This document shows, piece after piece, positions 14,324 through 40,897 of a stretch of DNA of 64,000 nucleotides (position 1 is the first letter of the stretch; every line of letters starts with the position of its first letter). Origin of the DNA: Bacteroidales bacterium (GTDB taxonomy: Bacteria; Bacteroidota; Bacteroidia; Bacteroidales; WCHB1-69); the NCBI GenBank assembly GCA_017964255.1, contig JAGCSI010000034.1, positions 9,992 through 73,991 of the forward strand, read 5' to 3'. The notes beneath the pieces are model-generated. The model was not told the DNA's origin. It did not search any database and saw nothing but the letters and a program-made list of their open reading frames with translations. The translations under genes and the position numbers were made by a program.

Positions 14324-14346
14324 TTTTTTCTTTGGTTTTATCGTGG

Positions 14347-14354
14347 CAAAGATA
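14347..14354 (-). promoter_or_regulatory. Bacteroidota -7 box (TAtcTTTG on minus strand) for mraZ
   Basis: caaagata lies 24 nt upstream of the mraZ ATG (14323). Confidence 0.55.
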
Positions 14355-24075: not shown

Positions 24076-27000
24076 TTAGAAATCCAATCCTATTGAGAAG
24101 TTAAACATACCCTTGGGGTTGTATATTTTGTAGTCCTCTACGCCCCAGGCGTAGTCGAAGCGCAGGAAATAGCCGAAAACACTAACTCGCAGGCCTAGGC
24201 CAAAGCCACCGACAAAGGGTTCCACCTGCCGTGTGATTTTGGCGGTGATGGGGCCGTTGATGACATAGCGGGTGTATAAACAGTTGTCTTCCGAATAAGG
24301 CGTGAGCCCCGTCCAGGCAGTGCCGAAGTCGCCGAACAAAAGCAACTGCATGGAGTTGAAGAAGTTGAAGCGTACTTTGTGCCCCACGATGAGCTGGATG
24401 AACGGAATGCGCAACTCCGTGTTCAGCACAATAAAAGAGGTACCGTTGCGGATGTTCTGCTCGAAACCATGCATGTTGGTGGCCAAGGTTTGATAGGCAT
24501 AGTCCTTGCTGACATCCACCCAGATGTCGCTGTTGAATTTGGCCCCAATCCAGTTGTCCACACCTCCCATGTAATACACTAAACGTGATTGCCCGAAATT
24601 GGTACTGGCCGCCAGTCGTGTGGCCCAGGTCATGTTCTTATAGACCTTTACCGATTTGCGGATGTCAAAACCGATGACAAACAGGTTTTTAGTCTCTTTC
24701 TCCACTCGCTGCTGGTACTCCGCGAACAGCTTGATTTTGCTGCCTTTCCACAGATTTGTATACAATTCTTTGGAGGAGTCAAAAATGTATTCTATTTTGG
24801 CACCTGCCCATACATGCCATTCGTTGGCTGCTTTGAGAGCGGCGTCGTTTGTGCTGCCTAAAATGTTGGTTTCCAGTCTTCCTGTAAGGGTCAAACGCAG
24901 GCTGTTGAATTTGTCGAAGGGCAATTTGATGATGTAAAACAAACTGTTGGCCCGCTGCTTGTACATGTAGTAGCTGTTGTAGGAGTTGATGGATTGACGG
25001 TAAAATACAATTTGGTGATCTACTCTCCGCGAGAGGTTTTCGTAGCTGATCATGAATTCATTGCTCTGCATGTCCAAACCGAGCCTGAAACCACCCGTGA
25101 TACGATGGTTCTCGAACAGGTCGTGGATGCCTACCATAAACAGGGCGTTGATTCCGGTGTTAAGGTAAATGGGACTGGTACTGCTGGTGAATTGCTGGTA
25201 AGTGGTGTTCAGAAAACCATAATCGGCTTGTGTAACCAGTTTGTTTACAGTATATTGTGTGTAATAGTTTTTGGAAATTGGGTGTACATATTCAAAACCT
25301 TTGGTGAGCACATCCTCTTGGATGCCTTTTTTAGAGCCGGTGTTGCTCAAACTATCTTCCACTATCACAGGCTTTTTGACCAAATCACTTTTTCTGAATT
25401 GGTAAAAACCGTGTTTTGTCGCGCTCTCTTTTTTCTTTTCCGGCTTGACGTTGGCCAGACTGTCCTTGATTTGCTGCTCTTTTAGTATTTGCGCCTTGAT
25501 GCTGGAAGCGCTCAACTCCTGTTGGTGCAAGGGAGATGCCAATGGGGTGATATAGATTCTTTTGACTTTGTCATATAGGATGATGCTTCCGCTTTGTACG
25601 GATGCGGGATTATAACTTTGTTCAAAAATGCTGTAATAATTGTCGCTGAGGTGTGACAGACGGGCGAAATAGCCGTAATGGATGATGGTGTCAATCTTGC
25701 TGATACTGCTGTCCAATCGGGTCAGTTGCTGATTATAAATACCGTTTTCATCGCTCAAAAACAATATTTCCCGTGGACTTACTGCCTGTGCCTGAATATT
25801 GTTCACGTGGTTGGAATGGGTGATTTGCAGGAGTTTTTCATCCTTTTGTACGTAGCGATACAAAAACAGATTATAGCCATCAACCGGTTTGGCTTGGTAG
25901 AAGGGATCCTTGATTTTGATGGAATCTACTGGCCGGTTGGAGGAGAAGACGATTTGTTTTTTATCCAGAAAAACAGGGAAGCAATCGTCGTAAAAGTCAT
26001 TGGTGATGTTTTGATAGGATTTGGCCAACAAACTGAAAATGAATATATCAGACTGTCCATTTTTGAATCCGGAGAAGAGCAGGAACTTGCCATCGGGGTC
26101 AAAAGAGAAGTCGGTGATTTTTTCCACGTCCACTAAAATACGTTTTCCTACTTTGTTTTTTTCCGTATCAAAAGGATAATAATAACAACGGCCTTTATCC
26201 TCCATGGTGAAGGCGAGAACACTTCCACTGGGGTGCCAGCATAGCGAGGGATAGCTGAGGTCCGGATTGTCTTCTGTTTTTTTATACTTTCGGTAGATGA
26301 CGACAGGTTTTTTCTTTTCAGGAGTTTTTAACCAGATTTTTACCTGTCCCGCTTCATTGGTGGCGTATGCGTAACTTTCCCCATCCGGTGAAAAACAGAA
26401 TTGGTTGTAGTCTCGCAGTTTGTGCGGGCGTTTCAAAATACCGTTTCCGTCGGGCATGGTCCTCTCACGGTCTTTGGCGTATAGAATGTAGTAATAGCGG
26501 AACCAGTTGGCTAACAGTTGCCGGTACTCCAAACCGGTGACAAGGTAAAATCCTCTTTCATAGCTGCCAGAAGAGCGGGTGACATGAAGAATATTGGGAA
26601 TGGCTTTCTCACCATACTCATCCACAATGAACTTCCAGAAGGAATGTCCGGCGTAGGTGGCATCTACGGGTGATAGCTCGTCAAAATCGGCATAACGTTG
26701 GGTCAGGATGCCGTCTTTGACGTGGGCATCGATGTCGCTGTCCCAGTTGCGTCCGATATATGACGACAGACCGTTATAGTACCAGCTGGGCATGGAACCT
26801 GTATAGCTTGATTTCATGTTGGAAGCTGTGGTGCTTCCTTCCACCAGCAGGTGAGCGTAGATATTCATGATGCCTGCCTTCAGCATCTTGTCGAAGTGGG
26901 CATGGCTGCCGTCGAAATACAGATAGACTTTGGTGCCGTAGATGTTGGTGATACCACCTTGGTTGTAAAAATCCTCGTCATCGCAAGCGAAATTAGATTC

Positions 27001-27306
27001 CCGGAAATCCGCCTGAGTATTATAGACGATGAATTGGATTTTCTTTTCCGAGGTGAAATTGAGCATTTTTTCAATCTCACTGATAAACTGTGGTGCCTTA
27101 TATAGCGTGTATTCAGCCAGATTTTTACCAGTGGGGTAGAAGTATACGTCGAATTGTGTGTCCCGGAAGTATTCCCAATTGAATTTCTGGTGCTGTACCC
27201 GGTTCTTTCCGAAACTCAGCTGTGAACCATTGTAAAACTGGGCATACAAAGGCACTGCCGCTATCAAAAGCAGGAATAAAACCATGATTTGCCCGAGTTT
27301 TTTCAT
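24076..27306 (-). CDS. large outer-membrane protein: N-terminal globular region + TolB/PD40-like beta-propeller repeats + C-terminal Omp85/surface-antigen-like beta-barrel
   Basis: 1076 aa with a signal peptide (AAVPLYAQ). PD40-like repeats (PDGESYAY, HPSGSVLAF, DPDGKFLLFSG..SDIFIF). Alternating-hydrophobic C-terminal third ending FNFSIGLDF, an aromatic terminal residue typical of OMPs. Confidence 0.6.
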   Translation of the reverse strand: MKKLGQIMVLFLLLIAAVPLYAQFYNGSQLSFGKNRVQHQKFNWEYFRDTQFDVYFYPTGKNLAEYTLYKAPQFISEIEKMLNFTSEKKIQFIVYNTQADFRESNFACDDEDFYNQGGITNIYGTKVYLYFDGSHAHFDKMLKAGIMNIYAHLLVEGSTTASNMKSSYTGSMPSWYYNGLSSYIGRNWDSDIDAHVKDGILTQRYADFDELSPVDATYAGHSFWKFIVDEYGEKAIPNILHVTRSSGSYERGFYLVTGLEYRQLLANWFRYYYILYAKDRERTMPDGNGILKRPHKLRDYNQFCFSPDGESYAYATNEAGQVKIWLKTPEKKKPVVIYRKYKKTEDNPDLSYPSLCWHPSGSVLAFTMEDKGRCYYYPFDTEKNKVGKRILVDVEKITDFSFDPDGKFLLFSGFKNGQSDIFIFSLLAKSYQNITNDFYDDCFPVFLDKKQIVFSSNRPVDSIKIKDPFYQAKPVDGYNLFLYRYVQKDEKLLQITHSNHVNNIQAQAVSPREILFLSDENGIYNQQLTRLDSSISKIDTIIHYGYFARLSHLSDNYYSIFEQSYNPASVQSGSIILYDKVKRIYITPLASPLHQQELSASSIKAQILKEQQIKDSLANVKPEKKKESATKHGFYQFRKSDLVKKPVIVEDSLSNTGSKKGIQEDVLTKGFEYVHPISKNYYTQYTVNKLVTQADYGFLNTTYQQFTSSTSPIYLNTGINALFMVGIHDLFENHRITGGFRLGLDMQSNEFMISYENLSRRVDHQIVFYRQSINSYNSYYMYKQRANSLFYIIKLPFDKFNSLRLTLTGRLETNILGSTNDAALKAANEWHVWAGAKIEYIFDSSKELYTNLWKGSKIKLFAEYQQRVEKETKNLFVIGFDIRKSVKVYKNMTWATRLAASTNFGQSRLVYYMGGVDNWIGAKFNSDIWVDVSKDYAYQTLATNMHGFEQNIRNGTSFIVLNTELRIPFIQLIVGHKVRFNFFNSMQLLLFGDFGTAWTGLTPYSEDNCLYTRYVINGPITAKITRQVEPFVGGFGLGLRVSVFGYFLRFDYAWGVEDYKIYNPKGMFNFSIGLDF

Positions 27307-27324
27307 CGCGTCAGTTTAAGCGTG

Positions 27325-27352
27325 CAAAGCTACAAAAATTTTTGTATTTTTG
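27325..27352. promoter_or_regulatory. back-to-back divergent -7 boxes forming a 28-bp near-palindrome
   Basis: caaagcta (minus-strand TAgcTTTG, 19 nt from the ATG at 27306) and tatttttg (plus strand, 21 nt from the ATG at 27373) are joined by caaaaatttttg. Confidence 0.55.
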
Positions 27353-27372
27353 CCCTTCATTTTGTTATTATC

Positions 27373-29088
27373 ATGGATATTCTGACAGTAAATGATTTTT
27401 CTCTGGAATTGAAGCGTGATGAGGAATGGAAACAGATTCTGCATCACGTGACTTTTTCGTTGGGAAAAGGGGAGACTGTCGGTATCGTGGGCGAGTCGGG
27501 TTCTGGCAAGTCGGTGACCGCTTTGTCGGTAATGCAGTTGCTGAATCGGAAAATAGCCAAATTCACGTCGGGAAGCATAGTCTTTCATGACAAAGACAGT
27601 GAAATTAGTATTTTGGACGCATCGGAAACGCAGATGCGGAGTATTCGGGGTGCTCGTATCGCCATGATTTTCCAGGAGCCTATGACCTCCCTCAATCCGG
27701 TCATCAAGTGTGGCGATCAGGTGACGGAGGCGATTTTGCTGCATAACGACATCAGCGAAAAAGAGGCCCGCGAGCAGGTGATTACACTTTTCAAAGAAGT
27801 GATGTTACCTCGTCCGGAAAAAATCTTTGATTCTTATCCTCATGAGTTGTCCGGTGGCCAGAAACAGCGTGTGATGATCGCCATGGCCATGAGCTGTCAT
27901 CCCGATATCCTGATTGCGGATGAGCCTACTACCGCACTGGATGTGACGGTGCAGAAGAATATTCTGGAACTGATACGCAGTCTGCAGCAGAAGCATGGCA
28001 TGAGCGTGATTTTTATCACCCACGATTTGGGTGTGGTGGCCGAAATCGCCGAAAAAGTGGTGGTGCTGTACAAGGGCCAGATTGTGGAGGCGGGACCGAT
28101 ACAAGAGATTTTCAGACATCCTCAACATCCTTATACACAGGGCTTGTTGGCATGTCGTCCGCCTTTGGATGTGCGTTTGAAAAAATTATCCACAGTGGAT
28201 GATTACATGCGCAGTGCGGAAGAGCATAAGGCGGTGCCAAAAGAGATTGTCTCTCCGGAGGAAAGACAAGTTTTCCATCAGCAGTTATATGCTGAGAAAC
28301 CGTTGATATGCATTGAGCATTTGTTCAAGACCTATCCCATTCGAAAACGGAAGTTGTTTGAGAAGCAGGAGTATGTCCATGCAGTGCAAGATATTAGTTT
28401 GGAAGTGTTTGAAGGAGAAACCCTGGGTTTGGTAGGCGAGTCGGGTTGCGGCAAAACCACTTTGGGCAGGTCCATGATCCGCTTGATTGAACCCACTTCA
28501 GGAATCGTAACTTATAAAGGGGAGAATTTGCTGAATTTGTCGGGACGGGAGATGATGAAACACCGCAAAGACCTGCAAATTATTTTGCAAGATCCTTATT
28601 CGTCTTTAAATCAGCGAATTACTATAGGTTCGGCCATCATGGAGCCAATGCAGGTGCATCATTTGTATGCCAATGACAAGGAACGGAAAAAACGGGCGAT
28701 AGAGTTGCTGGAGCGTGTTAGTTTGGACGAGTCGCATTTCTACCGCTATCCGCACGAGTTTTCCGGTGGTCAGCGGCAGCGTATCAGTATTGCCCGTGCC
28801 TTGGCGGTGAACCCTCGCTTCATCATCTGCGATGAGTCAGTTTCCGCGCTGGATGTGTCGGTACAGGCCCAGGTGCTGAATCTGCTTAATGAGTTGAAAC
28901 AGGAATACCATCTGACCTATATCTTCATTTCTCACGACTTGTCGGTGGTGAAGTTCATGTCCGATAGGATGGCGGTCATGCAGAATGGTAGAATAGTGGA
29001 ATTAAATGATGCGGACGAGGTGTATGCCCATCCGCAGACAGATTATACTAAAAAATTAATCGGGGCTATTCCCAAAGGTATTAATTAA
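27373..29088 (+). CDS. ABC transporter ATP-binding protein with duplicated ATPase domains (Dpp/Opp/YejF type)
   Basis: 571 aa from MDILTVNDF. Two Walker A motifs ([16 protein letters not shown]) and two signature motifs ([16 protein letters not shown]). Confidence 0.9.
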
Positions 29089-29135: not shown

Positions 29136-30053
29136 ATGAAAATTAAAGATATTGTTTTGTTGATACTTCGCCTCCTGATTGGCGGCATGTTTGTCACCAC
29201 AGCTATTATGAAGTTATTGACCATTGATGAGTTTGAAGCATATATATACAGTTTCGGCATTTTCAATTTCCTTTTATCCACAGTAGTAGCTCGTTTGGTG
29301 ATAATGGCCGAAATGCTGTTAGGTATTTGTTTGATGGCCAAGTTGTTGTATAAGTACGCATGGTGGTTGACTATGTTGATGCTGGTGGGATTCACCCTTT
29401 TTCTGATTTATGTGGCTATTTTCAGAAATGATACCAATTGCCATTGTTTTGGAGATATTATTCAAGTTGATCCCGCACATTCCATTATCAAAAATGTGGT
29501 GACGATGATTCTGATGTTTTTCATCAGGAAAGAGGAGGATTATCAGTTCAAAGGAAAGAAATGGGCGATAGCTGCTGCTTGCTTGGTGTCGTTTGTGGTG
29601 CCGTTCTGTGTGTTTCCGATGGATGCGGTCTATAACAAGTTTGTGTCTCCTGTGGAGGAGATTAATGAACAGGCTTTCACTACACTTCTGTCAGACAGCA
29701 CGATGGCGGATTTTGACATCCATGAGGGAAATTATGTGGTGGCTGTTTATGCCTCAGGTTGCAAATATTGCAAGATGAGCGCCAAGAGAATGTCAATGAT
29801 GATGGACCAACATGACCTTGATCCCGACAGATTCCAAATATTGATTTGGGGGGATTCTGTTCATATCAAGAGCTTTATGGAGGAAACCAATTGTTCCCAA
29901 TACCGTTGGTATCATATTAGTCCGTATAAGGCTATTGATATGGTATATGGCCAATTTCCCACGTTTATACTCACTCACGACGGCCAGGTCACCAAAGGCA
30001 TGGACTATCGTGGTATCGATGAAAGCATCTTGTTAGAGCATATTTCCAAATAA
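29136..30053 (+). CDS. DoxX/MauE-like membrane domain fused to a thioredoxin-like CxxC domain
   Basis: 305 aa. N-terminal four-TM region with CHCFGD (MauE/DoxX-like). C-terminal soluble region with VYASGCKYCKMS, a CxxC in a thioredoxin-like context. Confidence 0.55.
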   Translation: MKIKDIVLLILRLLIGGMFVTTAIMKLLTIDEFEAYIYSFGIFNFLLSTVVARLVIMAEMLLGICLMAKLLYKYAWWLTMLMLVGFTLFLIYVAIFRNDTNCHCFGDIIQVDPAHSIIKNVVTMILMFFIRKEEDYQFKGKKWAIAAACLVSFVVPFCVFPMDAVYNKFVSPVEEINEQAFTTLLSDSTMADFDIHEGNYVVAVYASGCKYCKMSAKRMSMMMDQHDLDPDRFQILIWGDSVHIKSFMEETNCSQYRWYHISPYKAIDMVYGQFPTFILTHDGQVTKGMDYRGIDESILLEHISK

Positions 30054-30066
30054 AAAGCGCAAAGAC

Positions 30067-30231
30067 TTATTTGCAAGAACGACTGTCGTTGGAGTAATTG
30101 CCGCAGTCTTCGTTGTAAGCTATTTCAATTTCCTGGTCTAAATTAGAACTGGAAATGGAACAGGTGCATGATTTGCTGCAGGCGCAACACATCATCGCCG
30201 CTACACAAACAAAAAACAATATCTTTTTCAT
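30067..30231 (-). CDS. 54-aa Cys-rich small secreted/lipoprotein-like peptide (not in ORF track)
   Basis: Hand translation gives MKKILFFVCVAAMMCCACSKSCTCSISSSNLDQEIEIAYNEDCGNYSNDSRSCK*. The N-terminus is signal-like and runs into a Cys cluster; 8 Cys in total. ATG at 30231-30229, TAA at 30069-30067. Confidence 0.4.
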   Translation of the reverse strand: MKKILFFVCVAAMMCCACSKSCTCSISSSNLDQEIEIAYNEDCGNYSNDSRSCK

Positions 30232-30313: not shown

Positions 30314-33157
30314 TCATCTCTCCCTGATCACCTGTAGCGTCCCATGATAATTCACCGTCTTCAATTTCCCCTTGTAATAAAAGGTAAAAAAGTAGGTTCC
30401 GTCAGTGACTTTGGACGCGTCGAAAACTTGTTCGCCAATGATAATCCCGTTGCCTCTTTCTCCCGTCATATCTTTGAAAGTGTCGTAGTTTATCGCATGA
30501 TAAACTTGCTTGCCCCAGCGATCATAGATGAATAGCTCGTTATTTCTGTATTTGTCTGGGTCAAAAACGTTCATGGTGGTGTTGAGATTGCCGATAGCGA
30601 ACACATCGTTCACTCCATCGCCATTGGGTGTGATGACGTTCGGGAAGACAAGGTCCGCTTCGAGTGTTACCGTGTGAGCGATGCTGCTGCTACAACCGTC
30701 AGAGGAGGATAGGGATAGCGTGACAACATAATCTCCCCAACTGCTATAATTATGCTCAATGCTGTAGCCCGAAGACTCACTGGAACCATCGCCAAAATCC
30801 CAAAGAATACTCATATTGTCCTCGAAAGACAGGGTGTCGCCCATAACATGAAATGTAATGACACCACCGCTTTCCGCCCAAAGGGAAATTTCTGGCAATG
30901 CTTCAAATTCGGCGACTGGCTGATAGTTCACATTGATTAAGTCAGACTTTAATAGCGAGTCTTGGCAGCCTTCGGGGCTTGTTATCGTGAGTTGTATGCT
31001 GTATATGCCACTTTGCTCGAAAGTGTAGTTGGGGTTTTGTTGCGATGAGGTGAAAACTATCTGTCCATATTCATCCCAACAGGTCCAATAATATTGTAAA
31101 TTTTCCCCTGTGACTACGCTCCTGTCAGTAAAGGTTACAGACAAAGGGGAACATCCACTGGTGTCGCTGACGGAAAAATCTGCCGTCGGTTTGGGTGCCA
31201 CCTGAATCAACACCGTGTCAGCGCCACTGCATACCAAGCCGTCTTCGGAGGTGTTGAATACATTCAGGGAATATTCGCCTGCAGAGGTAAGATAAATATC
31301 TGAGGTGTGCTCGCCAGTGCTCCATAAAAAGGTGGAGTTGTTATCCTGCCAGTTGGAAGTCAACAAGTATAGGTCACCGAAGCAGATAAAACGGTCATCT
31401 CCCAGGTCGGGCTGGGGACTTTGGGTAATGTCGATGTGCATAACGGTGTCATAAAGACAGCCATACTCATCGATTACATTCACCGTGTATGGAATATTGC
31501 CGCTTTGATTGGGCACAATATAGGTGCCGTTAGCTCCCGGACCTGTGATGAAGATGGTGTCCACTGCTACGGCATACGACCAGTTTTGGGGAAGTAGGGA
31601 GGGATCCAAAGCCATTTCCCATTCATGTAGATAACCATTGTCATTAGTCCATACATCCTCGATTTCGATGTACCAGCTGCCGTTCAAGGGACAACCTACC
31701 ATACCTGCGAAACTTTGAAGAGGATGATACACTTGGGTCATATTGGCCACGTCAGTGGAGTCGATTTTGTAGGAAGTAGAGCCATCATCCCAATAGGGGT
31801 TGGGCGTGGAGTGCACATTGCCAGGCTCATAACAATAGCTGTTTGGTGTGCTGGCATATTGATAACCTAATGTCGTGTTGTTCGACCATACATAATTCCA
31901 AGCAATTCCCATAGGATTTTGTGAGGCGTTGCAACTTACCACCTCCTGCAAGCGGTTTGCTACTCCCAAATTGGTCCGGAAGTAGTGGGTGACACCGCCC
32001 CAACCGTCATACTGGTAGTCGGGAACAATCTTGCAGCGACTTCCATTAGGACATACCAGTGAGATACGAATGTCTTCGATGGCAGAGTGCTCTATTTTCA
32101 AGCGCACATACAGAATGTCGTTGGCGCTGGTGATGGTTGCATTGGGCGAAAAAGCCGTGAAATTGACGTATGAACGGTAGTAATAGCCGTAAGGCGGACA
32201 ACTTATGCCGTCGGGGAGAAAAACCGTATCCACGACAGCCAATGAGGTGATTTGTTCACTTCCTACCGGGGTCAGTTGCAAGGAGGATAAATTGTCATAG
32301 CCTACCGACAGGTGCAATTCGTCGCCTGTGCATGCGGGCGCTTGGGCGGCAATCCCTTTGATGGGATTCTTGGAGGTGCGCACACGGAAGGTAATGGGCA
32401 CTAACGATGGGCATTGGCTGACATCAATGGCGCTGATGGCCACGTCATAGCCGCGTCCTGGTGTGAAGTAGTAGTCAATGGTATTCCCACCTGTAATGTC
32501 AAACTCTTCCAAGTCAAAATCCCACTTGAACGAGGTGGTGGCGTCAGACTGATGATAGCTGAAGTCATTGTCGGGATAGTCACAGTGAACCACAAAATGA
32601 ACGGTGTCATAAGGACAGACATCCACATAATAGTAGCTGTCTTCAGGATTCAGATGGGGAATATGGGTGGATTGTAATGAATCCAAGTAAATGTTCACGC
32701 GTTGGCATGGGGCAATGCAGCTGGTATGCAGTTCAAAGCCTTCGCTTACATTGGCGGAATCGGTCTTGAATCTGACGGTGATGGCACCAGTGGCATTTTG
32801 GATGGTGGCTGCATAACGGTAGGTGACAGTAGGATTGTAATTTCCATTGTTGATTTTGTGCAGCAATATTCCGTTGGTATCGGTTCCGTCGTAGAAATAA
32901 AGGGTGTCGTTTTCGTCGATATTCAGGCTTTGGACCTCTACCACGACACAGCCGTTGTTGGGGTCGTTGGAGGTGATGGTCAGTGTCTGGTCGAGATTTG
33001 AAGAGTAGTCTCCACTGGCCCCGCCATTGTCATAGATCAGCAAGTCACAGCCGGCAATGGCCGAACTGGCTCCAAGGTTTATGGTGCCTTGGGCGATAAG
33101 CATGGGTAAGCAGGAGATGAATAGTACAAACAAAAAGAAAGACTTTCTCATAAGCAT
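30314..33157 (-). CDS. T9SS type-B C-terminal sorting domain surface protein, paralog 1 (CUB-like + P-domain-like + PKD repeats + CTD)
   Basis: 947 aa with a signal peptide. N-terminal CUB-like block (CDLLIYDNGG...DTLYFYDG); P-domain-like block (LYVRLKIEHSAIEDIRISLVCPNGS). PKD-like WDFGDGS. C-terminus FPNVITPNGDGVNDVF...IYDRWGKQVY...GTYFFTFYYKG matches the gliding-motility C-terminal (type B) domain. Confidence 0.8.
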   Translation of the reverse strand: MLMRKSFFLFVLFISCLPMLIAQGTINLGASSAIAGCDLLIYDNGGASGDYSSNLDQTLTITSNDPNNGCVVVEVQSLNIDENDTLYFYDGTDTNGILLHKINNGNYNPTVTYRYAATIQNATGAITVRFKTDSANVSEGFELHTSCIAPCQRVNIYLDSLQSTHIPHLNPEDSYYYVDVCPYDTVHFVVHCDYPDNDFSYHQSDATTSFKWDFDLEEFDITGGNTIDYYFTPGRGYDVAISAIDVSQCPSLVPITFRVRTSKNPIKGIAAQAPACTGDELHLSVGYDNLSSLQLTPVGSEQITSLAVVDTVFLPDGISCPPYGYYYRSYVNFTAFSPNATITSANDILYVRLKIEHSAIEDIRISLVCPNGSRCKIVPDYQYDGWGGVTHYFRTNLGVANRLQEVVSCNASQNPMGIAWNYVWSNNTTLGYQYASTPNSYCYEPGNVHSTPNPYWDDGSTSYKIDSTDVANMTQVYHPLQSFAGMVGCPLNGSWYIEIEDVWTNDNGYLHEWEMALDPSLLPQNWSYAVAVDTIFITGPGANGTYIVPNQSGNIPYTVNVIDEYGCLYDTVMHIDITQSPQPDLGDDRFICFGDLYLLTSNWQDNNSTFLWSTGEHTSDIYLTSAGEYSLNVFNTSEDGLVCSGADTVLIQVAPKPTADFSVSDTSGCSPLSVTFTDRSVVTGENLQYYWTCWDEYGQIVFTSSQQNPNYTFEQSGIYSIQLTITSPEGCQDSLLKSDLINVNYQPVAEFEALPEISLWAESGGVITFHVMGDTLSFEDNMSILWDFGDGSSESSGYSIEHNYSSWGDYVVTLSLSSSDGCSSSIAHTVTLEADLVFPNVITPNGDGVNDVFAIGNLNTTMNVFDPDKYRNNELFIYDRWGKQVYHAINYDTFKDMTGERGNGIIIGEQVFDASKVTDGTYFFTFYYKGKLKTVNYHGTLQVIRER

Positions 33158-33216
33158 GATTTTTTGTTTTTGATATCCAATTTGCCTCCGTAAGAATCTC
33201 TATTAAAATCAGTCCA

Positions 33217-33224
33217 CAAAGTTA
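33217..33224 (-). promoter_or_regulatory. Bacteroidota -7 box (TAacTTTG on minus strand) for paralog 1
   Basis: caaagtta lies 60 nt upstream of the ATG at 33157. Confidence 0.5.
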
Positions 33225-33267
33225 CACAAAAATTTTAAACATATTTCTACTTGCAATAATTTATTGT

Positions 33268-33302
33268 AAAAAAAAAGAGTTAAGAAGAATACCTCTTAAC
33301 TC
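33268..33302 (-). terminator. intrinsic terminator after paralog 2
   Basis: On the minus strand: 9-bp stem gagttaaga/tcttaactc with an 8-nt loop, followed by a T9 run (the A-run at 33268-33276 on the plus strand). Confidence 0.7.
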
Positions 33303-33337
33303 TTAATTGTTAATTGTAAACTATTAACTATCAATTG
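33294..33337. repeat. six heptamer units (TCTTAAC-like) abutting the stop of paralog 2
   Basis: tcttaac tcttaat tgttaat tgtaaac tattaac tatcaat, then tg and the stop tta (33338-33340). Unit 1 doubles as the terminator stem arm. Confidence 0.8.
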
Positions 33338-36199
33338 TTAACGGTCTCTGATAATCTGCAGGGTGCCGTGATAGTTGACGGTTTTTAATTTTCCTTTGTA
33401 GTAAAACGTGAAATAATAGGTACCATCGTTCACCTTGGAAGCGTCGAAGACCTGTTCTCCCACTATAATACCATTACCTCTCTCACCGGTCATATCCTTG
33501 AAAGTGTCATAGTTGAGTGCATGATATACTTGTTTGCCCCAGCGGTCGTAAATGGTCAGCTCGTTGTTTCTGTATCTGTCAGGGTCATAGCTGTTCATGG
33601 AGGTGTTGAGGTTGCCGATGGCAAATACGTCGTTCACACCATCCCCATTGGGAGTGATGACATTCGGGAAAATGAGGTCTGCTTCCAGAGTAACTGTATG
33701 GGTGATACTGCTGTTACAGCCTTCGGGGGTGAACATGAACAAGGTTACATCGTAATCGCCCCAGCTGGAAAAGCTGTGTTCGAGGGCATAGCTGGAGGAG
33801 TCGATGCTGCCATCGTCGAAGTCCCAATAAAATCCCATGTCATCTCCGAATGCCAGCGTGTCGCCTTGTACCTGGAAGAAGACGGAGCCATTAGTTTCAG
33901 ACCAAAGCGCTACTTCGGGCAGAGCATCGAATTCAGCCAAGGGTTGGTAATTGATGGTCAGGTAATTGACCTTGGTGATAGAATCCGTACAGCCTTCATC
34001 AGTGGTAACCACTAATTTGACGGTATAGTGGCCTTCATTCTCGAAGCGAAGGTCCGGATTGGCCTTGTCAGAGGTGCTGACAATATTGCCGTTTTCATCA
34101 AAGATAATCCACCGGAAACTCATTCCCATGGTATCATTGGTTACGCTCCTGTTGATAAAGTGGATGTCAAGTGGTGCGCAACCTGCGGTATCCGATGCGG
34201 TAAATTCGGGAACAGGTTTAGGTGATACATATACATTGACGGTATCAGAACCCGTGCAGGTCAAACCATCGTCATTGGTAACGGCCACACGTACTGAATA
34301 ATCACCTGCGGAAGTTAAGAAGATGGTGGGAGTGTGTTCACCGGTATTCCAATAAACGGTACTTTGGGGATTGTCATAATGTGAATCCAATTCATAGAGT
34401 TCTCCGTGGCAGATGGCAATGTCGGGACCCAAGTCGGGATGAGGTCTCTCTACTACTTCAATATGAAGCAGTGTGTCATACACACAACCAAATTCGTCCA
34501 TAATGTGTGCGGTATATTCTACCTGACCACTTTGGTCGGGAATAATGTATGCTCCTTGAGCACCAGGACCGGTAACCCACATGGTGTCAGGGTGAACAGT
34601 ATAATCCCAGTCTTGTGGCAGCAAGGAAGGATCCAGAGCCATTTCCCATTCGGTCAGCCAGCCGTTATCAGCGCCCCAACCGTCAATTACTTTGATAGAC
34701 CAGGTTCCGTTCATCGGACAGCCAATAAGTTGTGAGAAGGGCTGGTCAGGATGATATACTTGGGTCATGTTCACTGTGTTGGTGGAATCTACTCTGCCGT
34801 TAGTTACATTGACAGTTTCATATACATAACCTTGGCCGTTGGCATATTGGTATCCCAGCGCAGTGTTGTTGGACCAGCAGTAGTTCCAAGTCTGACCCAT
34901 TTGGTTTTGGCTGTCGTTGGGGTTGCAACCATTGGAATAGTCGTAGGCTACACCGAAATAGGCACCTGAAGAGACTCCAGAAGTTACTTGCCATCCCCAT
35001 GGGGTCGGAATCTGGGAAGCACAAGTGGTGGCACCGCTGGTTCCGTATTTGTTCATAATTTTGACTGTTTGTCCATTAGGACAGCTCAAGGCAATGTAGA
35101 TATCACCGATAAATGAGTGCTCCAACTGGATACGGACATACAAAATGTCATCGGCACTTTGGATGGTGGCAGAGGGAGCAAAAGCTGTAAAGGTTACAGA
35201 TGAAGTGTATGCACATCCATTACCACAGTCCACACCGTCGGGGAGGAAGATGGTGTCCGTTACCTTCAAAGTGGTCAGCTGTTCACTGAACACAGAGTCC
35301 ACCTGGATGACAGAAAGGTTTGAATAGGTGGAGGAGACTGTGATTTGGTCGCCAGTACACATAGGAGGTAATTGCGATACTTTTCTGATGGGGTTTTGGG
35401 AAGTTCTGATACGGAAGATTTCAGGCATATAGTTGATACAGCCGGCACTATCCACATTGGAGATGGCGATGTCATAACCGCGACCTGTGGTGAAATAGTA
35501 ATCCAAGGTGTTCATACCCACACCTTCTTGTGTTTCAATTCCCAAATCCCAAGTGAATGTTGTGTTTGCATCGTCCTGATGATAGCTGAAGTCGTTGTCC
35601 GGATAGACACCGTGCACTACCATGTGCAAAGTGTCCTTTTCGCACAAATCCACATAGTAGAAGCCGTCGTCAGCCAAATGGGGATAGTGGGATGACAATA
35701 CTGAATCGATTTCCAAACTTACGCGCTGGCAGGGAGCCACACAGTCGGTGTTGATGACGTATCCTGTACCAACACTATCTGATGCATCAGAAACGAATTT
35801 TAAGGTCAATGCGCCTGTGGGATTGGTCACTGTGGCGGTGAAAATGATATTGTTGGCTGTGACACCGTACATTACATCGTTGTTGACGGCACCGATCAAC
35901 AGAGAATCGGCATCAGTGACACCATCATAGATGTACAGTGTGTCAGTGGGATGGATGTCAAAACCCAACATGACAATGCTGATCTGAACACACGCTGCAT
36001 TCGGGTTGCTGGAGTGAATGGTCAGAAGGTCGTTGCGGTTGGGACCATAATTTCCTTGGAGACCACCGTGATCATAAATGACGAAATTACAGCCTGTTAC
36101 ATCTGTGGTACTACCGCCCATGGTGACTACAGTCTGCGCTGAAACAGTACCTATAATCCCGCAAATAATAAAAGCGAGGAGAGTTAAAATTCTTTTCAT
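33338..36199 (-). CDS. T9SS type-B C-terminal sorting domain surface protein, paralog 2
   Basis: 953 aa with the same architecture as paralog 1. The C-terminal ~115 aa are nearly identical in all three paralogs, and the protein is collinear with paralog 3 over its whole length. Confidence 0.8.
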   Translation of the reverse strand: MKRILTLLAFIICGIIGTVSAQTVVTMGGSTTDVTGCNFVIYDHGGLQGNYGPNRNDLLTIHSSNPNAACVQISIVMLGFDIHPTDTLYIYDGVTDADSLLIGAVNNDVMYGVTANNIIFTATVTNPTGALTLKFVSDASDSVGTGYVINTDCVAPCQRVSLEIDSVLSSHYPHLADDGFYYVDLCEKDTLHMVVHGVYPDNDFSYHQDDANTTFTWDLGIETQEGVGMNTLDYYFTTGRGYDIAISNVDSAGCINYMPEIFRIRTSQNPIRKVSQLPPMCTGDQITVSSTYSNLSVIQVDSVFSEQLTTLKVTDTIFLPDGVDCGNGCAYTSSVTFTAFAPSATIQSADDILYVRIQLEHSFIGDIYIALSCPNGQTVKIMNKYGTSGATTCASQIPTPWGWQVTSGVSSGAYFGVAYDYSNGCNPNDSQNQMGQTWNYCWSNNTALGYQYANGQGYVYETVNVTNGRVDSTNTVNMTQVYHPDQPFSQLIGCPMNGTWSIKVIDGWGADNGWLTEWEMALDPSLLPQDWDYTVHPDTMWVTGPGAQGAYIIPDQSGQVEYTAHIMDEFGCVYDTLLHIEVVERPHPDLGPDIAICHGELYELDSHYDNPQSTVYWNTGEHTPTIFLTSAGDYSVRVAVTNDDGLTCTGSDTVNVYVSPKPVPEFTASDTAGCAPLDIHFINRSVTNDTMGMSFRWIIFDENGNIVSTSDKANPDLRFENEGHYTVKLVVTTDEGCTDSITKVNYLTINYQPLAEFDALPEVALWSETNGSVFFQVQGDTLAFGDDMGFYWDFDDGSIDSSSYALEHSFSSWGDYDVTLFMFTPEGCNSSITHTVTLEADLIFPNVITPNGDGVNDVFAIGNLNTSMNSYDPDRYRNNELTIYDRWGKQVYHALNYDTFKDMTGERGNGIIVGEQVFDASKVNDGTYYFTFYYKGKLKTVNYHGTLQIIRDR

Positions 36200-36235
36200 T
36201 GTTGTATGTTTTTATTTTTGTTGATTTTCTATGGA

Positions 36236-36688
36236 TTACAAGCCGTATTCTGATAAAACAGCGCGTTTCTGTTCCTCAAACCATTGCTTGGAGTTGACAA
36301 TGATATAGGCGCCAGTATTGCCCATGGGATAGACCACTGTCATAAAGGCATGTTGCTCCAAGTCAAAGTCATAGCGATTGATGGCTCCGCTGCTGATAAT
36401 ATCCTGGTAATTGCAGCTTTTGCCAGCTTTGACATGGTTCTTCAAGTCGTCTTTCATGATGAAAGTGCCTTCTGGTTCCGACATTTTCAAAGCCACATAG
36501 CAGAAATAATTCAGATTGACATGCTCAATCAATAATTGTTTCGGATTATTGGCTTTCAAATCGTTAACTTTGGCAGCTCCTAATATCTCTGTGAGGCGAG
36601 GATCAACCTTAATTTCTTTCTTGCTTTGCTGTGAATAGGCTCCAAATAGAAGGAAATAAGCCATCGCAAATAAAATCAGTTTTTTCAT
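36236..36688 (-). CDS. 150-aa secreted hypothetical protein, likely co-transcribed with paralog 2
   Basis: Signal peptide MKKLILFAMAYFLLFGAYSQQ. Its stop is 36 nt upstream of the paralog 2 start, with no promoter box between them. No recognisable family. Confidence 0.6.
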   Translation of the reverse strand: MKKLILFAMAYFLLFGAYSQQSKKEIKVDPRLTEILGAAKVNDLKANNPKQLLIEHVNLNYFCYVALKMSEPEGTFIMKDDLKNHVKAGKSCNYQDIISSGAINRYDFDLEQHAFMTVVYPMGNTGAYIIVNSKQWFEEQKRAVLSEYGL

Positions 36689-36809
36689 AACTATCTAATT
36701 TTTAATATGTTATCATTTTTACATTTCCCTTTTTGCTGTTTTTCTCTAACTACATGACGCTTTAAACCTTCAAAACGTTACAACAAAATGAAATTTTTTT
36801 TCTAATCGG

Positions 36810-36817
36810 CAAAGATA
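36810..36817 (-). promoter_or_regulatory. Bacteroidota -7 box (TAtcTTTG on minus strand) for the 150-aa gene/paralog 2 unit
   Basis: caaagata lies about 120 nt upstream of the ATG at 36688, implying a leader of roughly 110 nt that contains the conserved block at 36752-36796. Confidence 0.45.
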
Positions 36818-36885
36818 CAAAATATTTAATATAAATATACTTTAGATGAAAAAATAGATGCCTTTATATGGATATTTTTCTGTTT

Positions 36886-39744
36886 TTATCTTTCTTTGAT
36901 AATCTGCAGGGTGCCGTGATAGTTGACAGTTTTTAATTTTCCTTTGTAGAGGAAGGTGAAGAAATAAGTGCCGTCGGTCACTTTGGAAGCGTCGAATACT
37001 TGTTCACCCACAATGATGCCATCACCTCGCTCACCGGTCATATCCTTGAAGGTGTCATAGTTGAGGGCATGGTAAACTTGTTTGCCCCAGCGGTCGTAAA
37101 TGGTCAGTTCGTTGTTTCTGTATCTGTCTGGATCATAGTCATTCATGGAAGTATTGAGGTTGCCGATGGCAAATACGTCGTTCACACCATCTCCATTGGG
37201 AGTGATGACATTCGGGAAAATGAGATCTGCCTCCAAAGTAACTGTATGGGTGATACTGCTCTTACAACCTTCAGGAGTGAACATGGAGAGGGTCACATCA
37301 TAGTCGCCCCAACTGGGGAAAATGTGTTCAAGGGCATAGCTGGAGGAGTCGATGCTGCCATCACCAAAGTCCCAATAGAAACCCATGCCGTCGCCGAATT
37401 CCAGAGTGTCGCCCTGTACTTGGAAAAAGATGGTGCCATTGGTTTCAGACCAGAGCGCCACTTCAGGAAGAGCGTCGAATTCAGCCATAGGTTGGTAATT
37501 GATAGTCAGATAATTGTATTTGGTGATGGAATCTGTGCATCCTTCATCGGTAAGGACCACTAATTTGACGGTATAATGTCCCTCGTGGTCAAATTGCAGG
37601 TCGGGGGATGCCTTGTCGGAGGTAAAGGCCACATTGCCGTTTTCGTCATAGACAATCCAATGGTATGACATGCCCATGGTGTCGTTGGCGAAGCTGGCAT
37701 TGTTGAAATGTACGGTCAATGGCGCGCAACCAGAGGTGTCGGACGCAGAGAATTCAGGCGTCGGTTTCGGGGAAACATAGACATTGACAGTGTCGGAACC
37801 TGTGCAAACCAACCCGTCTTCGTTGGTCACAGACACACGGACTGAGTAGTCACCCGCGGAAGTCAGAAAGATGGAAGGACTGTGCTCGCCGGTGCTCCAC
37901 ACGAGTGAGGTATAAGGCTCGTCATAGCCACAATCTAATTCATAAAGGTCACCATGGCAGATGGCGATGTCGGGTCCGAGGTCAGGATGAGGCCTCTCCA
38001 CCACGTCCAAAACAAAGGTGCTATCGTATTCACAGCCTAAATCGTCAATAACATGTACCGTATATTCAAAGTTACCACCCTCGGAAGGGATGATGGTGGA
38101 ATTTTCCGCGCCAGGGCCGGTCACGTACACGGAGTCGACAAAAACGGTGTAGGACCAATCCTGGGGCACCAAAGAGGGGTCTAAAGCCATTTCCCATTCG
38201 GTAATCCATCCGTTGTCCGCTCCCCATCCGTCAATGACGGTGATTGCCCATTGTCCGTTCATGGGGCATCCGATCAATGAACTGAAGGACTCGTCAGGAT
38301 GATAAACATTGGTCATATTGAGCGTATTGGTGGAGTCAACACTGCCATTGTGGACATTGACAGTTTCGTAAACATATCCATAGCCATTGGCATACTGGTA
38401 TCCGTTGCTGGTGTTGTTCGACCAACAATAATTCCAGGGCTGACCCATTTGGTTCTGGCTGTCGAAGGGATTGCAACCGTTGGAATAGTCGTAGGCAATG
38501 CCAAAATTTGCGCCGGAAGACACTCCTGTGCTTAATTGCCATCCCCAAGGAACGGGAATATAGGCGGAGCATTGGGAGGAGCCGCTTGAGCCGTATTTGT
38601 TCATGATTTTGGCCCTTTGTCCGTTCGGACAGGTGAGCGCGATATAGACATCACCGATATAGGAGTGCTCTAATTTTATCCGGACATACAGAATGTCGTC
38701 GGCGCTCTGTATGGTGGCGTTGGGGGCGAATGCGGTGAAAGTCACGGGAGAGTTGTATTCGCATCCGTTACCGCAATCCACTCCGTCGGGAATGAAGACG
38801 GTATCGTTGACAGCCAGTGTTGTCTCCTGTACGCTGTGAACCGAGTCAATTTGCAATATGGAAAGATTGGAGTATCCGGAGGTTATCGTTATTTCATCAC
38901 CGGAACAGATAGCGGGTAGCGGCTGTATGTGCTTGATGGGGTTCATGGAGGTCCTGATTCGGAAGATGGTAGGCATCATGTTCTTGCAGCCGGCACTATC
39001 CTCATTGCTGATCGAAATGTCATATCCTCGTCCAGCTTCAAACAGATAGTCCAGTACAGTCATCCCTTCTCCTTCCATGTAGTCAACGCCCAGGTCCCAT
39101 TTGAATGTGACATTGGTGTCGGCTTGGTGGTAAGTGTAGTCATTGTCGGGATAAACCCCGTTTACGACCAGATGAAGGGTGTCATTCCCGCAAAGATCTA
39201 TGTAATAAAAGCCGTCTGTATCCAGTTGCGGATAATGAGAGGATAAAAAGGGATTAATTTCCAAACCGACACGTTGGCAAGCACGAACGCAACTTGTTTC
39301 AACGAGATATCCGCCGGATTGGAGGGTGTCGTCACTTTTGAACCTCAAGGTTATTGCTCCGCTCGGATTGTGGACGGTAGCCGAGTAAACGAGTTCGTTT
39401 GCGGAAACGTTATTTACAATTTGGCTGTTGATGGCCGCTAATAACAGAGAATCTGCCACCATGTCTCCGTCATACACAAACAAGGTGTCATTGTGACAAA
39501 TTTCCAGATATACCATGTTGATTTTCACTTGCACATTGGGATTCGTGGGGTCGTCCGAATGAATGGTCAAGATGTCATTACGGTGGGGACCGTAATTTCC
39601 TTGAAGACCGCCGTGGTCTAAAATGACAAAATCACATCCTGTGACACTTGTTGTGCTACCGCCCATCGTAACGAAGGTCTGTGCGGAAATGGTCCCCATA
39701 ATCCCGCAAATGATAAAGGCTAAAAGAATAATATTGTTTTTCAT
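36886..39744 (-). CDS. T9SS type-B C-terminal sorting domain surface protein, paralog 3
   Basis: 952 aa from the ATG at 39744. MKNNIILLAFIICGIMGTISAQT parallels the paralog 2 N-terminus. The ORF-track start at 39774 is a TTG that adds 10 aa. Confidence 0.8.
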   Translation of the reverse strand: MKNNIILLAFIICGIMGTISAQTFVTMGGSTTSVTGCDFVILDHGGLQGNYGPHRNDILTIHSDDPTNPNVQVKINMVYLEICHNDTLFVYDGDMVADSLLLAAINSQIVNNVSANELVYSATVHNPSGAITLRFKSDDTLQSGGYLVETSCVRACQRVGLEINPFLSSHYPQLDTDGFYYIDLCGNDTLHLVVNGVYPDNDYTYHQADTNVTFKWDLGVDYMEGEGMTVLDYLFEAGRGYDISISNEDSAGCKNMMPTIFRIRTSMNPIKHIQPLPAICSGDEITITSGYSNLSILQIDSVHSVQETTLAVNDTVFIPDGVDCGNGCEYNSPVTFTAFAPNATIQSADDILYVRIKLEHSYIGDVYIALTCPNGQRAKIMNKYGSSGSSQCSAYIPVPWGWQLSTGVSSGANFGIAYDYSNGCNPFDSQNQMGQPWNYCWSNNTSNGYQYANGYGYVYETVNVHNGSVDSTNTLNMTNVYHPDESFSSLIGCPMNGQWAITVIDGWGADNGWITEWEMALDPSLVPQDWSYTVFVDSVYVTGPGAENSTIIPSEGGNFEYTVHVIDDLGCEYDSTFVLDVVERPHPDLGPDIAICHGDLYELDCGYDEPYTSLVWSTGEHSPSIFLTSAGDYSVRVSVTNEDGLVCTGSDTVNVYVSPKPTPEFSASDTSGCAPLTVHFNNASFANDTMGMSYHWIVYDENGNVAFTSDKASPDLQFDHEGHYTVKLVVLTDEGCTDSITKYNYLTINYQPMAEFDALPEVALWSETNGTIFFQVQGDTLEFGDGMGFYWDFGDGSIDSSSYALEHIFPSWGDYDVTLSMFTPEGCKSSITHTVTLEADLIFPNVITPNGDGVNDVFAIGNLNTSMNDYDPDRYRNNELTIYDRWGKQVYHALNYDTFKDMTGERGDGIIVGEQVFDASKVTDGTYFFTFLYKGKLKTVNYHGTLQIIKER

Positions 39745-39849
39745 TGTGCTATGGTTTTTAGTGTTTTCTTTCAATCACATGACGCTAAAAACTCGCAAAA
39801 CGTTACAATGAAATCAAGTTTTTGGCAAGCCGGAGGCTTACATAAATTT

Positions 39850-39940: not shown

Positions 39941-39978
39941 ATAAAAAAAAACGTGTCAAACAGAAATCTGACACGTTT
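39941..39978 (-). terminator. intrinsic terminator after tRNA-Phe
   Basis: On the minus strand: stem aaacgtgtca/tgacacgttt followed by a T-run (the A9 run on the plus strand at 39943-39951). Confidence 0.7.
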
Positions 39979-39986
39979 GAAAAAAG

Positions 39987-40059
<73 letters not shown>

Positions 40060-40234: not shown

Positions 40235-40897
40235 TTAATCGTTCAATTTTTTGCCGTAAGCTAAATCTCCGGCATCTCCCAAACCAGGTACGATAAATGA
40301 ATTGGCAGTCAGTTCATCGTCCACGGCACCCACCCAAATGGTGCATTTACGGGGTGAGAGATTCTTCTGCAAATACTCTATACCCTGGGCGGAAGCGATG
40401 GCGCAAACAATGTGCGTGTGCCTGGGGTTGCCGTTGTTGAGGAGTTCTTCGTAAGCTAAAATCATGGATTGTCCTGTCGCCAACATAGAGTCGGCGATAA
40501 TCAATGTACGGTCCTCCAAATTGGGAGCTGACATGTAATCTACCTGGATTTCGAAGGAACCGTCGCGGTAATGCTTTCTGAAAGCCGATATAAAGGCGTT
40601 TTCCGAGTCGTCGAAGTAGTTGAGTAATCCTTGGTGGAAGGGGAGCCCGGCACGCAAAATTGTGGCTAAAACGGGCTTCTCCTTGAGCAGGTTCATATTG
40701 GCTATGCCAAGCGGAGTGGAGACTTCTCGCTTTTCATATTCCATCTGCTTGCTGATTTCATAGGCGAAAATCTCTCCTATACGTTCCAGATTTCTTCTGA
40801 AGCGCATGCTGTCCTGTTGAGCGTTCTCGCTTCTTATTTCCGCAATGAAATGATTGAAGATGGAATTCTCTAATCCTAAGTTTCTGATGGGTTTCAT
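40235..40897 (-). CDS. upp: uracil phosphoribosyltransferase
   Basis: 220 aa. PRPP-binding loop LIIADSMLATGQS and C-terminal VPGLGDAGDLAYG. Confidence 0.9.
   Translation of the reverse strand: MKPIRNLGLENSIFNHFIAEIRSENAQQDSMRFRRNLERIGEIFAYEISKQMEYEKREVSTPLGIANMNLLKEKPVLATILRAGLPFHQGLLNYFDDSENAFISAFRKHYRDGSFEIQVDYMSAPNLEDRTLIIADSMLATGQSMILAYEELLNNGNPRHTHIVCAIASAQGIEYLQKNLSPRKCTIWVGAVDDELTANSFIVPGLGDAGDLAYGKKLND

Follow-up and report, generated by a model that had tools for sequence, protein, structure and literature searches.

The window analysed here is a stretch of 64,000 nucleotides (64 kb) of contig JAGCSI010000034.1 from an uncultured Bacteroidales bacterium. It contains a block of three big tandem paralogs, P1, P2 and P3, and one small gene, all encoded on the minus strand (Table 1). 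We suggest, with a probability of roughly 0.7, that P1, P2 and P3 are old paralogs encoding orphan type-B cargo for a type IX secretion system (T9SS), that they come with a small partner protein and share an unlinked carrier, that P2 and P3 have been subject to gene conversion, and that their heads serve in binding. By orphan we mean cargo without an adjacent porP/sprF-like gene. The big genes are probably new members of this known cargo class, encoding adhesin-like binding proteins of rumen Bacteroidales.

In brief, P1-P3 share one domain order: a signal peptide, a CUB-like domain, an immunoglobulin (Ig)-like domain, a split P-domain, Ig/PKD domains and a C-terminal domain (CTD) of type B. 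An initial annotation of the window, made by eye from the sequence, had given the order as signal peptide, CUB-like domain, P-domain with inserts, Ig/PKD domains and type-B CTD, which is right at the level of the folds. Its reading of the C-termini as type-B sorting domains was confirmed for all three paralogs. CHU_C (PF13585) scores 61.8, 61.9 and 63.6 bits, with a cut-off of 27, over residues 838-942, 843-948 and 842-947, that is, at the extreme C-terminus. The type-B CTD contains inserts, approximately 105 residues being aligned to a model of 86 positions. P1 and P2 each match the P_proprotein model (PF01483) in two separate stretches and P3 matches it in one, at 38-39 bits (cut-off 21), and the match is interrupted by an insert of roughly 60-100 residues. 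PKD_4/PKD domains were found above the gathering score in the Pfam search of the paralogs. Of the models by which the annotation had proposed to check this architecture, PF13585, PF01483 and PKD are therefore present, whereas TIGR04131 stays below its cut-off and the Pfam model for CUB is not matched.

The Pfam CUB model (PF00431) gave nothing at E<0.1 in any paralog, and the CUB-like assignment comes from structure prediction. The AlphaFold model of P2 residues 22-310 (predicted local distance difference test, pLDDT, 83.5) consists of two beta-sandwiches, a CUB fold followed by an Ig-like one. A Foldseek search against the PDB gave target-normalised template modelling (TM) scores of 0.70 to 4gza_H (neuropilin CUB), 0.68 to 6gh8_A, 0.74 to 1spp_A (spermadhesin) and 0.63 to 6f1d (C1r CUB2), and these CUB structures share 13-19% identity with the P2 model. 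The model also matches PCPE-1 CUB1-CUB2 (E 3.5e-6), and its second domain resembles PKD/Ig domains (4tn9_A, TM 0.69). It should be noted that CUB was placed on the first domain by inference, the targets being single domains and the alignments covering about 134 columns. Searches of PDB sequences with P2 alone and with a family profile found PKD domains only, and a search with the P-domain region alone gave no match. The P-domain assignment is that of Pfam.

Sec signal peptides were judged by inspection. The N-terminus of each big protein is hydrophobic and then runs into A-Q (in P2 the predicted cleavage site lies between TVSA and QT), and Q22 is invariant in 39 homologs. A Gln after the predicted cleavage site agrees with the Q-rule of Bacteroidetes, as set out in PMC10653852.

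We did not find a match to PorP_SprF (PF11751) in any open reading frame (ORF) of plausible size in the window. As the initial annotation had stated, no porP/sprF-like gene is present at the block. Nor is there one just outside it: a MauE/DoxX gene adjoins one end, and the other end is bordered by tRNA-Phe and a UPRTase gene. The search for a carrier was extended to the whole family. Around 73 loci, the ORFs of 230-480 aa that lie within 6 kb number 203, and they were grouped into 95 clusters. PorP_SprF was not among the 25 commonest of the 121 Pfam families matched by the 95 cluster representatives, nor was it found in 20 representatives scanned singly, which included the largest clusters, further candidates with a signal peptide and the single outer-membrane-protein-like candidate. 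On these searches the big-gene family as a whole is predicted to be orphan type-B T9SS cargo.

The initial annotation had treated the missing neighbour as an anomaly. We disagree, as published orphan type-B substrates use unlinked carriers (PMC12618676, PMC9143113). In Flavobacterium johnsoniae, nine of the 12 type-B substrates adjoin a sprF-like gene, and the three 'orphans' share the unlinked shuttle Fjoh_1677 (PMC12618676). PG1035, the only type-B protein of Porphyromonas gingivalis, binds to the general PorP, and PorP in turn binds to PorE (PMC9143113). By analogy, we infer that the cargo described here would first be exported by Sec and then pass through the type IX translocon, after which an unlinked carrier of the PorP/SprF type would take it over and serve as its anchor, as for the published orphans with their one shared shuttle. 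The need to fit one shared unlinked carrier would, by the same analogy, be a sufficient reason for the near-identical CTDs of all three proteins.

The window also encodes a type-A CTD protein, as the initial annotation had noted: a trypsin-like peptidase at 54504-56498 on the minus strand, with a Por_Secre_tail match of 51 bits and a weak, sub-threshold BACON match (19.8 bits, cut-off 25). Type-A and type-B T9SS cargo are thus both encoded within 25 kb.

The small gene encodes a protein with a signal peptide, an invariant Gln at position 20 and two almost invariant cysteines, Cys63 and Cys92. It has no match among the models of Pfam and NCBIfam. Its AlphaFold model (pLDDT 88.4) has three helices, a small sheet and a C-terminal helix, and no fold match was found in the PDB or BFVD. 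The family is narrow: it forms 38 clusters at 90% identity, and a library of 1.84 billion contains 45 representatives of it.

In every metagenomic context that was read, a homolog of 148-152 aa is located 19-38 nt upstream of a big gene, and this holds in three different chromosomal neighbourhoods. Hidden Markov model (HMM) scans of the 73 loci placed a small gene directly upstream of a big gene (-14 to +84 nt) in 48 of the 66 loci that have upstream DNA. This count comprises 46 detected cases plus L064 and L070, which were missed only through an over-extended big ORF. The linkage is kept even in a remote pair, in which the big protein shares only 35% identity with P2. Where two or three big genes form an array, the small gene precedes the first of them (16 of 19 arrays). 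The window-type layout, in which an additional big gene (P3) stands upstream of the small one, is the exception, and locus L048 has a tandem [small-big][small-big] arrangement. From this linkage and from the arrangement of the arrays across loci, we conclude that the ancestral unit is a two-gene operon, with the gene for a secreted protein of about 150 aa first and one big gene 0-40 nt after it. The extra big genes are products of tandem duplication.

In the window, the gap between the small gene and P2 is 36 nt and no terminator-like site was found in it. The co-transcription of the two genes, stated in the initial annotation, is very likely. What that annotation underrated was the importance of the small protein, whose gene is conserved and stands first in the ancestral unit. 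Upstream of P3, a hidden, degenerate small gene was looked for and rejected; only tRNA-Phe and short spurious ORFs are found there, and the duplicated part is the promoter region.

At L042:12983-13441, L046:12983-13441 and L054:2999-3457, a second gene of the small family, belonging to another subfamily, stands after the big gene and has no big gene behind it; the next ORF has 228 aa. These second small genes look like copies left over after loss of a big partner.

There is no sorting domain, lipobox or beta-barrel in the small protein, and one copy serves up to three big genes. Because of this, we favour a sub-stoichiometric periplasmic helper over a surface subunit or a carrier. Such a helper would be a cargo-specific accessory, a chaperone or escort that keeps a large disulfide-rich cargo competent for T9SS export. 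A bolder proposal, possible though doubtful, is that the small protein represents a new class of cargo-specific T9SS accessory (a periplasmic escort or adaptor, or a co-displayed subunit), which would have co-evolved with the orphan cargo and be co-expressed with it from an ECF-sigma promoter, so that an envelope or environmental signal would turn on the surface display of these binding proteins in rumen Bacteroidales.

Alternatively, the small protein could be a stoichiometric partner that leaves the periplasm together with the cargo, or could replace the linked PorP/SprF-PorE anchor or carrier, and would then be a new surface type-B accessory. We regard this as unlikely. The tight gene linkage, which survives deep divergence, the joint duplication of small and big gene in L048, the lack of a linked porP/sprF match in the family loci searched and the confident but unmatched fold are all in its favour. 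So is the correlation between small-protein identity and the identity of the neighbouring big proteins (Spearman 0.76 overall), which is confounded by shared phylogeny. However, a soluble alpha/beta protein of 130 aa with none of the three features named above cannot be an outer-membrane carrier, there is one small gene for up to three big genes, the downstream paralogs never have a small copy of their own, and 18 of 66 loci are without one. A mirror-tree comparison of the small protein with the domains of the big proteins gave 0.70 for the CUB/N-terminal part versus 0.57 for the CTD; this too is confounded by shared phylogeny and was not used as evidence.

The small gene and P3 are each preceded by a motif of the form GTAAC-N17-CGTC, located 93 nt upstream of the small-gene ATG and 62 nt upstream of the P3 ATG, respectively. 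The consensus of Bacillus subtilis sigma-X, sigma-M and sigma-W has the same AAC...CGTC form. A TAnnTTTG box, which we take to be the housekeeping -7 element of Bacteroidetes, lies upstream of the small gene and another near the P3 motif. In the whole window GTAAC-N16-17-CGWC has these two matches only. Across the family, GTAAC-N16-17-CG[TA]C is found in 35 of 59 distinct regions upstream of small genes, on the coding strand at -50 to -125; shuffled controls gave a mean of 0.04 and the opposite strand gave 0. Upstream of P3, approximately 130 nt resemble the sequence that precedes the small gene (mean column identity 72%, taken over all 248 columns of the alignment). Promoters for extracytoplasmic function (ECF) sigma factors usually combine an '...AAC' -35 element with a 'CGTC' -10 element, as in the target list of PMC6767563. 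The small-big unit is therefore probably under the control of an alternative, ECF-type sigma factor.

A terminator-like hairpin is located between the P2 stop and the P1 start, and none was found in the interval between P3 and the small gene. The block would consist of three transcription units: P3 with an ECF-type promoter; the small gene and P2 with an ECF-type promoter and the terminator; and P1 with a promoter of its own. A scan with the sigma-70 consensus was discarded, since it gave 25 sites versus 21 in shuffles and the consensus is unsuited to Bacteroidetes; only the terminator hits were used. At L043, short tandem repeats (GAATGAAGAATGTAGAAT... and GAATTATGAAT...) replace the usual promoter motif upstream of the small gene, at approximately 9420-9510.

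The three big proteins are collinear over 973 alignment columns. P1 is 56% identical to P2 and 54% to P3, and P2 and P3 share 75%; in the last approximately 110 aa the values rise to 88-92% for P1 against the others and 94-98% for P2 against P3. The mosaic divergence with near-identical C-termini reported in the initial annotation was thus recovered, at 54-75% overall versus 88-98% in the last part, and identity is not uniform along the proteins. A search with P2 as query gave more than 120 homologs that are full-length (927-966 aa) and at least 49% identical, and every one of them comes from uncultured Bacteroidales. An alignment of 39 sequences has many invariant Cys, Gly and Trp residues along its whole length. 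All 73 genome loci come from Bacteroidales-type metagenome-assembled genomes (MAGs), mostly of herbivore guts, and the hosts of the family are uncultured Bacteroidales of herbivore guts only (rumen, horse faeces, a few human samples).

Each of the three paralogs has orthologs of its own. For P1 these are P0057 (85% identity) and P0052-58 (76-79%), for P2 they are P0001-P0012 (82-96%), and for P3 it is P0018 (95%). The order P3, small gene, P2, P1 is also found in at least four other assemblies (L010, L011, L014 and L015). In a codon tree of nine genes from three genomes, the three orthogroups are separated with a bootstrap of 1.0 over codons 1-740, and P1 is monophyletic in all segments, also with a bootstrap of 1.0. 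Ortholog dN/dS, the ratio of nonsynonymous to synonymous rates (Nei-Gojobori), is 0.01-0.22 in each of six segments, including the CUB-like head. As the ratio is this low in every domain, selection is purifying rather than diversifying, and P1, P2 and P3 are old, stably maintained paralogs under purifying selection. Recent tandem duplication is ruled out by the separate orthogroups and by a proportion of synonymous differences (pS) between paralogs of about 0.7-0.9.

These data also bear on the suggestion, made in the initial annotation, of a variable adhesin family with diversification of the exposed part. Here the exposed N-terminal parts would be under diversifying selection, perhaps also shuffled by recombination, so that binding or antigenicity varies, and the secretion signal would be kept constant by conversion. 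The mosaic divergence of the paralogs, the conversion-like 3' tract common to P2 and P3, and the mosaic orthologs described below, which point to recombination between strains, would fit such a family. We nevertheless consider it quite unlikely. Neither a raised dN/dS nor a fast turnover of the exposed domains was found; the orthogroups are clean and the head evolves under the same low ratio as the rest. The paralogs have orthologs of 79-96% identity and a recurring three-gene layout. Length, layout and dozens of invariant residues are kept across more than 100 homologs, and the CTD of P1 is maintained by selection, not by conversion.

The P2 orthologs are themselves mosaic. Window positions 33338-36199 and L010:10001-12862 are 100% identical in DNA at columns ~181-280 and only 75-80% identical at columns ~380-440 and ~620-760, with dS ranging from 0.13 to 0.93 depending on the segment. 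This pattern suggests homologous recombination between strains within the gene.

Why the C-terminal domains are alike differs between the paralogs. Between P1 and P2 or P3, the CTD has a pS of 0.84-0.92, which is saturated, and a dN of 0.06. Because the synonymous sites are saturated while dN is this low, the likeness of the P1 CTD is due to selection on the protein alone, and gene conversion is ruled out as its cause. For P2 and P3, the DNA likeness that had been noticed by eye between 33338-33700 and 36886-37250 is real, with 323 of 363 positions identical (89.0%); the corresponding stretch of P1 has 75.5-77.7% DNA identity to P2 and P3. The pS between P2 and P3 is 0.7-0.9 over most of the gene, 0.45-0.6 from column ~761 and 0.26-0.27 in columns 841-900, and the P2 and P3 orthogroups lose support (below 0.5) in the last approximately 215 codons. 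In the first 740 codons, P2/P3 identity is 0.68 and ortholog identity 0.84-0.93. Over the last 345 nt, P2 and P3 of one genome are 0.84-0.90 identical and those of different genomes 0.86 on average, with a mean ortholog identity of 0.90. In the core of the tract, P2 and P3 of the same genome are 0.91-0.93 identical (two genomes) versus a mean ortholog identity of 0.89 for P3 and 0.91 for P2. We read this pattern as the signature, of moderate strength, of gene conversion or repeated homogenisation, which would span approximately the last 200 codons of P2 and P3. The initial annotation had offered gene conversion or constraint on the secretion signal as alternatives; constraint applies to all the CTDs, and conversion to P2 and P3 but not to P1.

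Peptidase_S8 or any other catalytic family was not found at E<0.1 in any paralog, with Pfam, with NCBIfam or with the family profile against PDB sequences. Because no catalytic domain is detectable, the most likely role of the big proteins is in binding, as adhesins or ligand receptors that are displayed on the surface and differ in their three heads. That they are instead secreted enzymes or toxins, and the small protein a periplasmic inhibitor or immunity protein, is very improbable: the P-domain (PF01483), one homolog named 'subtilisin-like proprotein convertase family protein' in a Joint Genome Institute (JGI) record and the position of a small secreted protein just upstream of a secreted effector, a common inhibitor/immunity layout, would fit, but against them stand the lack of any catalytic family, a CUB plus Ig-like fold in residues 22-310, a family profile that finds nothing but PKD domains among PDB sequences, and a single small gene for heads only 54-75% identical, which argues against a specific inhibitor.

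Several points weigh against the orphan-cargo reading that we prefer. The T9SS core genes and a PorP-type carrier are assumed to be present in this genome, the sole indirect support being the type-A CTD protease in the window. TIGR04131 scores 26.4-29.2 bits, below the NCBI curated cut-off of 35, and is matched at positions 3-44 of its 85 only. The binding function is deduced solely from the absence of catalytic domains, and an activity could hide in the P-domain insert (~388-484) and in residues ~545-660, outside the part that was modelled. As for the conversion between P2 and P3, its signal is moderate, since paralog and ortholog identities converge and those of paralogs are not clearly higher in all genomes. 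The promoter is a motif match alone, with no ECF sigma gene in the window; indeed, the window ORFs that were scanned yielded no gene of the sigma-70 family. The role of the small protein is taken only from its adjacency to the big gene, and as 18 of 66 loci are without it, it is not obligatory for every member of the family. Finally, the organism is uncultured and the family is known here from its sequence alone.

Table 1. Features of the big-gene block, in window coordinates.
Feature	Position	Strand	Remarks
P1	30314-33157	minus	ORF, 947 aa; CTD ~30314-30646
Terminator-like hairpin	33275-33304	minus	13-bp stem followed by a T run; between P2 stop and P1 start
P2	33338-36199	minus	ORF, 953 aa; NCBI MBP5663136.1; CTD ~33338-33673
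Homogenised 3' tract, P2 side	33338-33920, core 33488-33682	minus	approximate; drop in pS and loss of orthogroup support
Small gene	36236-36688	minus	ORF, 150 aa; NCBI MBP5663137.1, annotated 'hypothetical protein'
ECF-sigma-type motif GTAAC-N17-CGTC	36756-36781	minus	93 nt upstream of small-gene ATG
TAnnTTTG box	36810-36817	minus	upstream of small gene
P3	36886-39744	minus	ORF, 952 aa from ATG; NCBI MBP5663138.1; CTD ~36886-37221
Homogenised 3' tract, P3 side	36886-37470, core 37036-37230	minus	approximate; drop in pS and loss of orthogroup support
Second ECF-sigma-type motif GTAAC-N17-CGTC	39781-39806	minus	62 nt upstream of P3 ATG; TAnnTTTG box nearby
tRNA-Phe	39986-40059	minus	upstream boundary of the block; followed by terminator-like hairpin 39949-39978

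In the order of transcription, the locus consists of the UPRTase gene (40235-40897), tRNA-Phe, P3, the small gene, P2 and P1, followed by the convergent MauE/DoxX gene (29136-30053). The interval between P3 and the small gene is 197 nt. The mechanically called ORF of P3 extends upstream to a TTG at 39774; its length in Table 1 is counted from the ATG used in the initial annotation. The exact P2, P3 and small proteins are present in NCBI, where their source is an uncultured Bacteroidales MAG and the big proteins are named 'gliding motility-associated C-terminal domain-containing protein'. In a collection of 15 billion proteins, these three were matched, and P1 from the ATG at 33157 (MLMRKSFF...) had no exact match. 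The real start of P1 may be the ATG two codons further down (MRKSFF...; window 33151-33157). Orthologs begin with MKK(F/V)(L/F)F.

The syntenic locus between the UPRTase and MauE genes varies among genomes, with one small-big pair in L008, a pair and a second big gene in L003, and three big genes in the window type. In L003, three extra genes (encoding 268, 148 and 270 aa) are located between the two big genes, at 13153-15288. The 148-aa product is lipoprotein-like and unrelated to the small partner (16% identity). This insert was considered as a possible carrier and rejected, as the 268-aa product has only a weak, sub-threshold match to OMP_b-brl (16.6 bits, cut-off 28.7) and the window lacks the insert.

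At 30067-30231 on the minus strand, where the last big gene has ended and the convergent MauE/DoxX gene has not yet begun, there is a Cys-rich ORF of a type 54-62 aa long with a lipoprotein-like signal (MKKILFFVCVAAMMCCACSKSCTCS...). It is conserved at L010:16048-16212 (nearly identical), L003:18368-18556 and L008:11416-11592. In the three syntenic contexts for which gene calls were read, it is among the called genes, irrespective of the number of big genes (one to three). At its C-terminus the MauE/DoxX protein has a CxxC (thioredoxin-like) region. The Cys-rich ORF may be part of a redox or peptide system and not of the T9SS cargo. Further away, at 24076-27306 on the minus strand, a protein of 1076 aa with PD40/Tricorn_N-like beta-propeller repeats is encoded next to a double ABC ATPase gene (27289-29088). 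The PD40/Tricorn_N-like gene is syntenic with the big-gene locus in L003, L008 and L010 too.

The closest known parallel is with the orphan type-B substrates of F. johnsoniae. Like these, the big genes lack an adjacent porP/sprF-like gene, have CTDs that are similar to each other, are expected to use one carrier and encode putative adhesins. The hosts differ, being Flavobacteriia there and gut Bacteroidales here, and the passengers here are CUB-like, P-domain and PKD domains. Unlike the Flavobacterium orphans as reported, the paralogs described here stand in tandem, with a conserved gene for a small secreted protein and an ECF-type promoter motif ahead of them. The PG1035-PorP-PorE system of P. 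gingivalis (PMC9143113) also comes from the Bacteroidales and also has a type-B cargo unlinked to its carrier gene. The general PorP anchors PG1035, whose C-terminal domain stays uncleaved. It is, however, a single protein of ~50 kDa and the only type-B cargo in its genome, whereas the proteins described here are of ~105 kDa, occur in several copies and have a dedicated upstream partner gene.

In the cargo operons of F. johnsoniae (SprB/SprF; Fjoh_3952/3951/3950), the cargo gene is followed by a cognate sprF-like gene and often by a porE-like gene. As in the unit described here, type-B cargo and a dedicated accessory gene form one operon. The accessory differs: here it is encoded upstream and is a soluble protein of 150 aa, whereas in F. 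johnsoniae it is an outer-membrane beta-barrel of ~300 aa. With eukaryotic and bacterial CUB domains and the P-domain of proprotein convertases, the big proteins share the CUB superposition (TM 0.63-0.74) and a PF01483 score over the threshold. In contrast to those proteins, they have no CUB match at the sequence level, no S8 domain accompanying the P-domain, and a P-domain that is split by an insert.

It is still being established how type-B cargo is recognised and escorted and how it is anchored, and almost all of this work is on F. johnsoniae and P. gingivalis. The family described here is a natural case outside those models and is abundant in rumen and hind-gut Bacteroidales. The near-identical sorting domains of several orphan cargos fit a single shared carrier. 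What goes beyond the known pattern is the conserved upstream small protein, whose predicted fold is unmatched, and the conserved ECF-type promoter motif, so that the locus is of modest novelty. The three big genes of the window are ordinary, stably inherited surface-protein paralogs rather than a contingency locus that evolves fast. Should the small protein be a cargo-specific helper, the T9SS toolkit would gain a component, and the pair of small and big gene would be a simple marker for finding such units.

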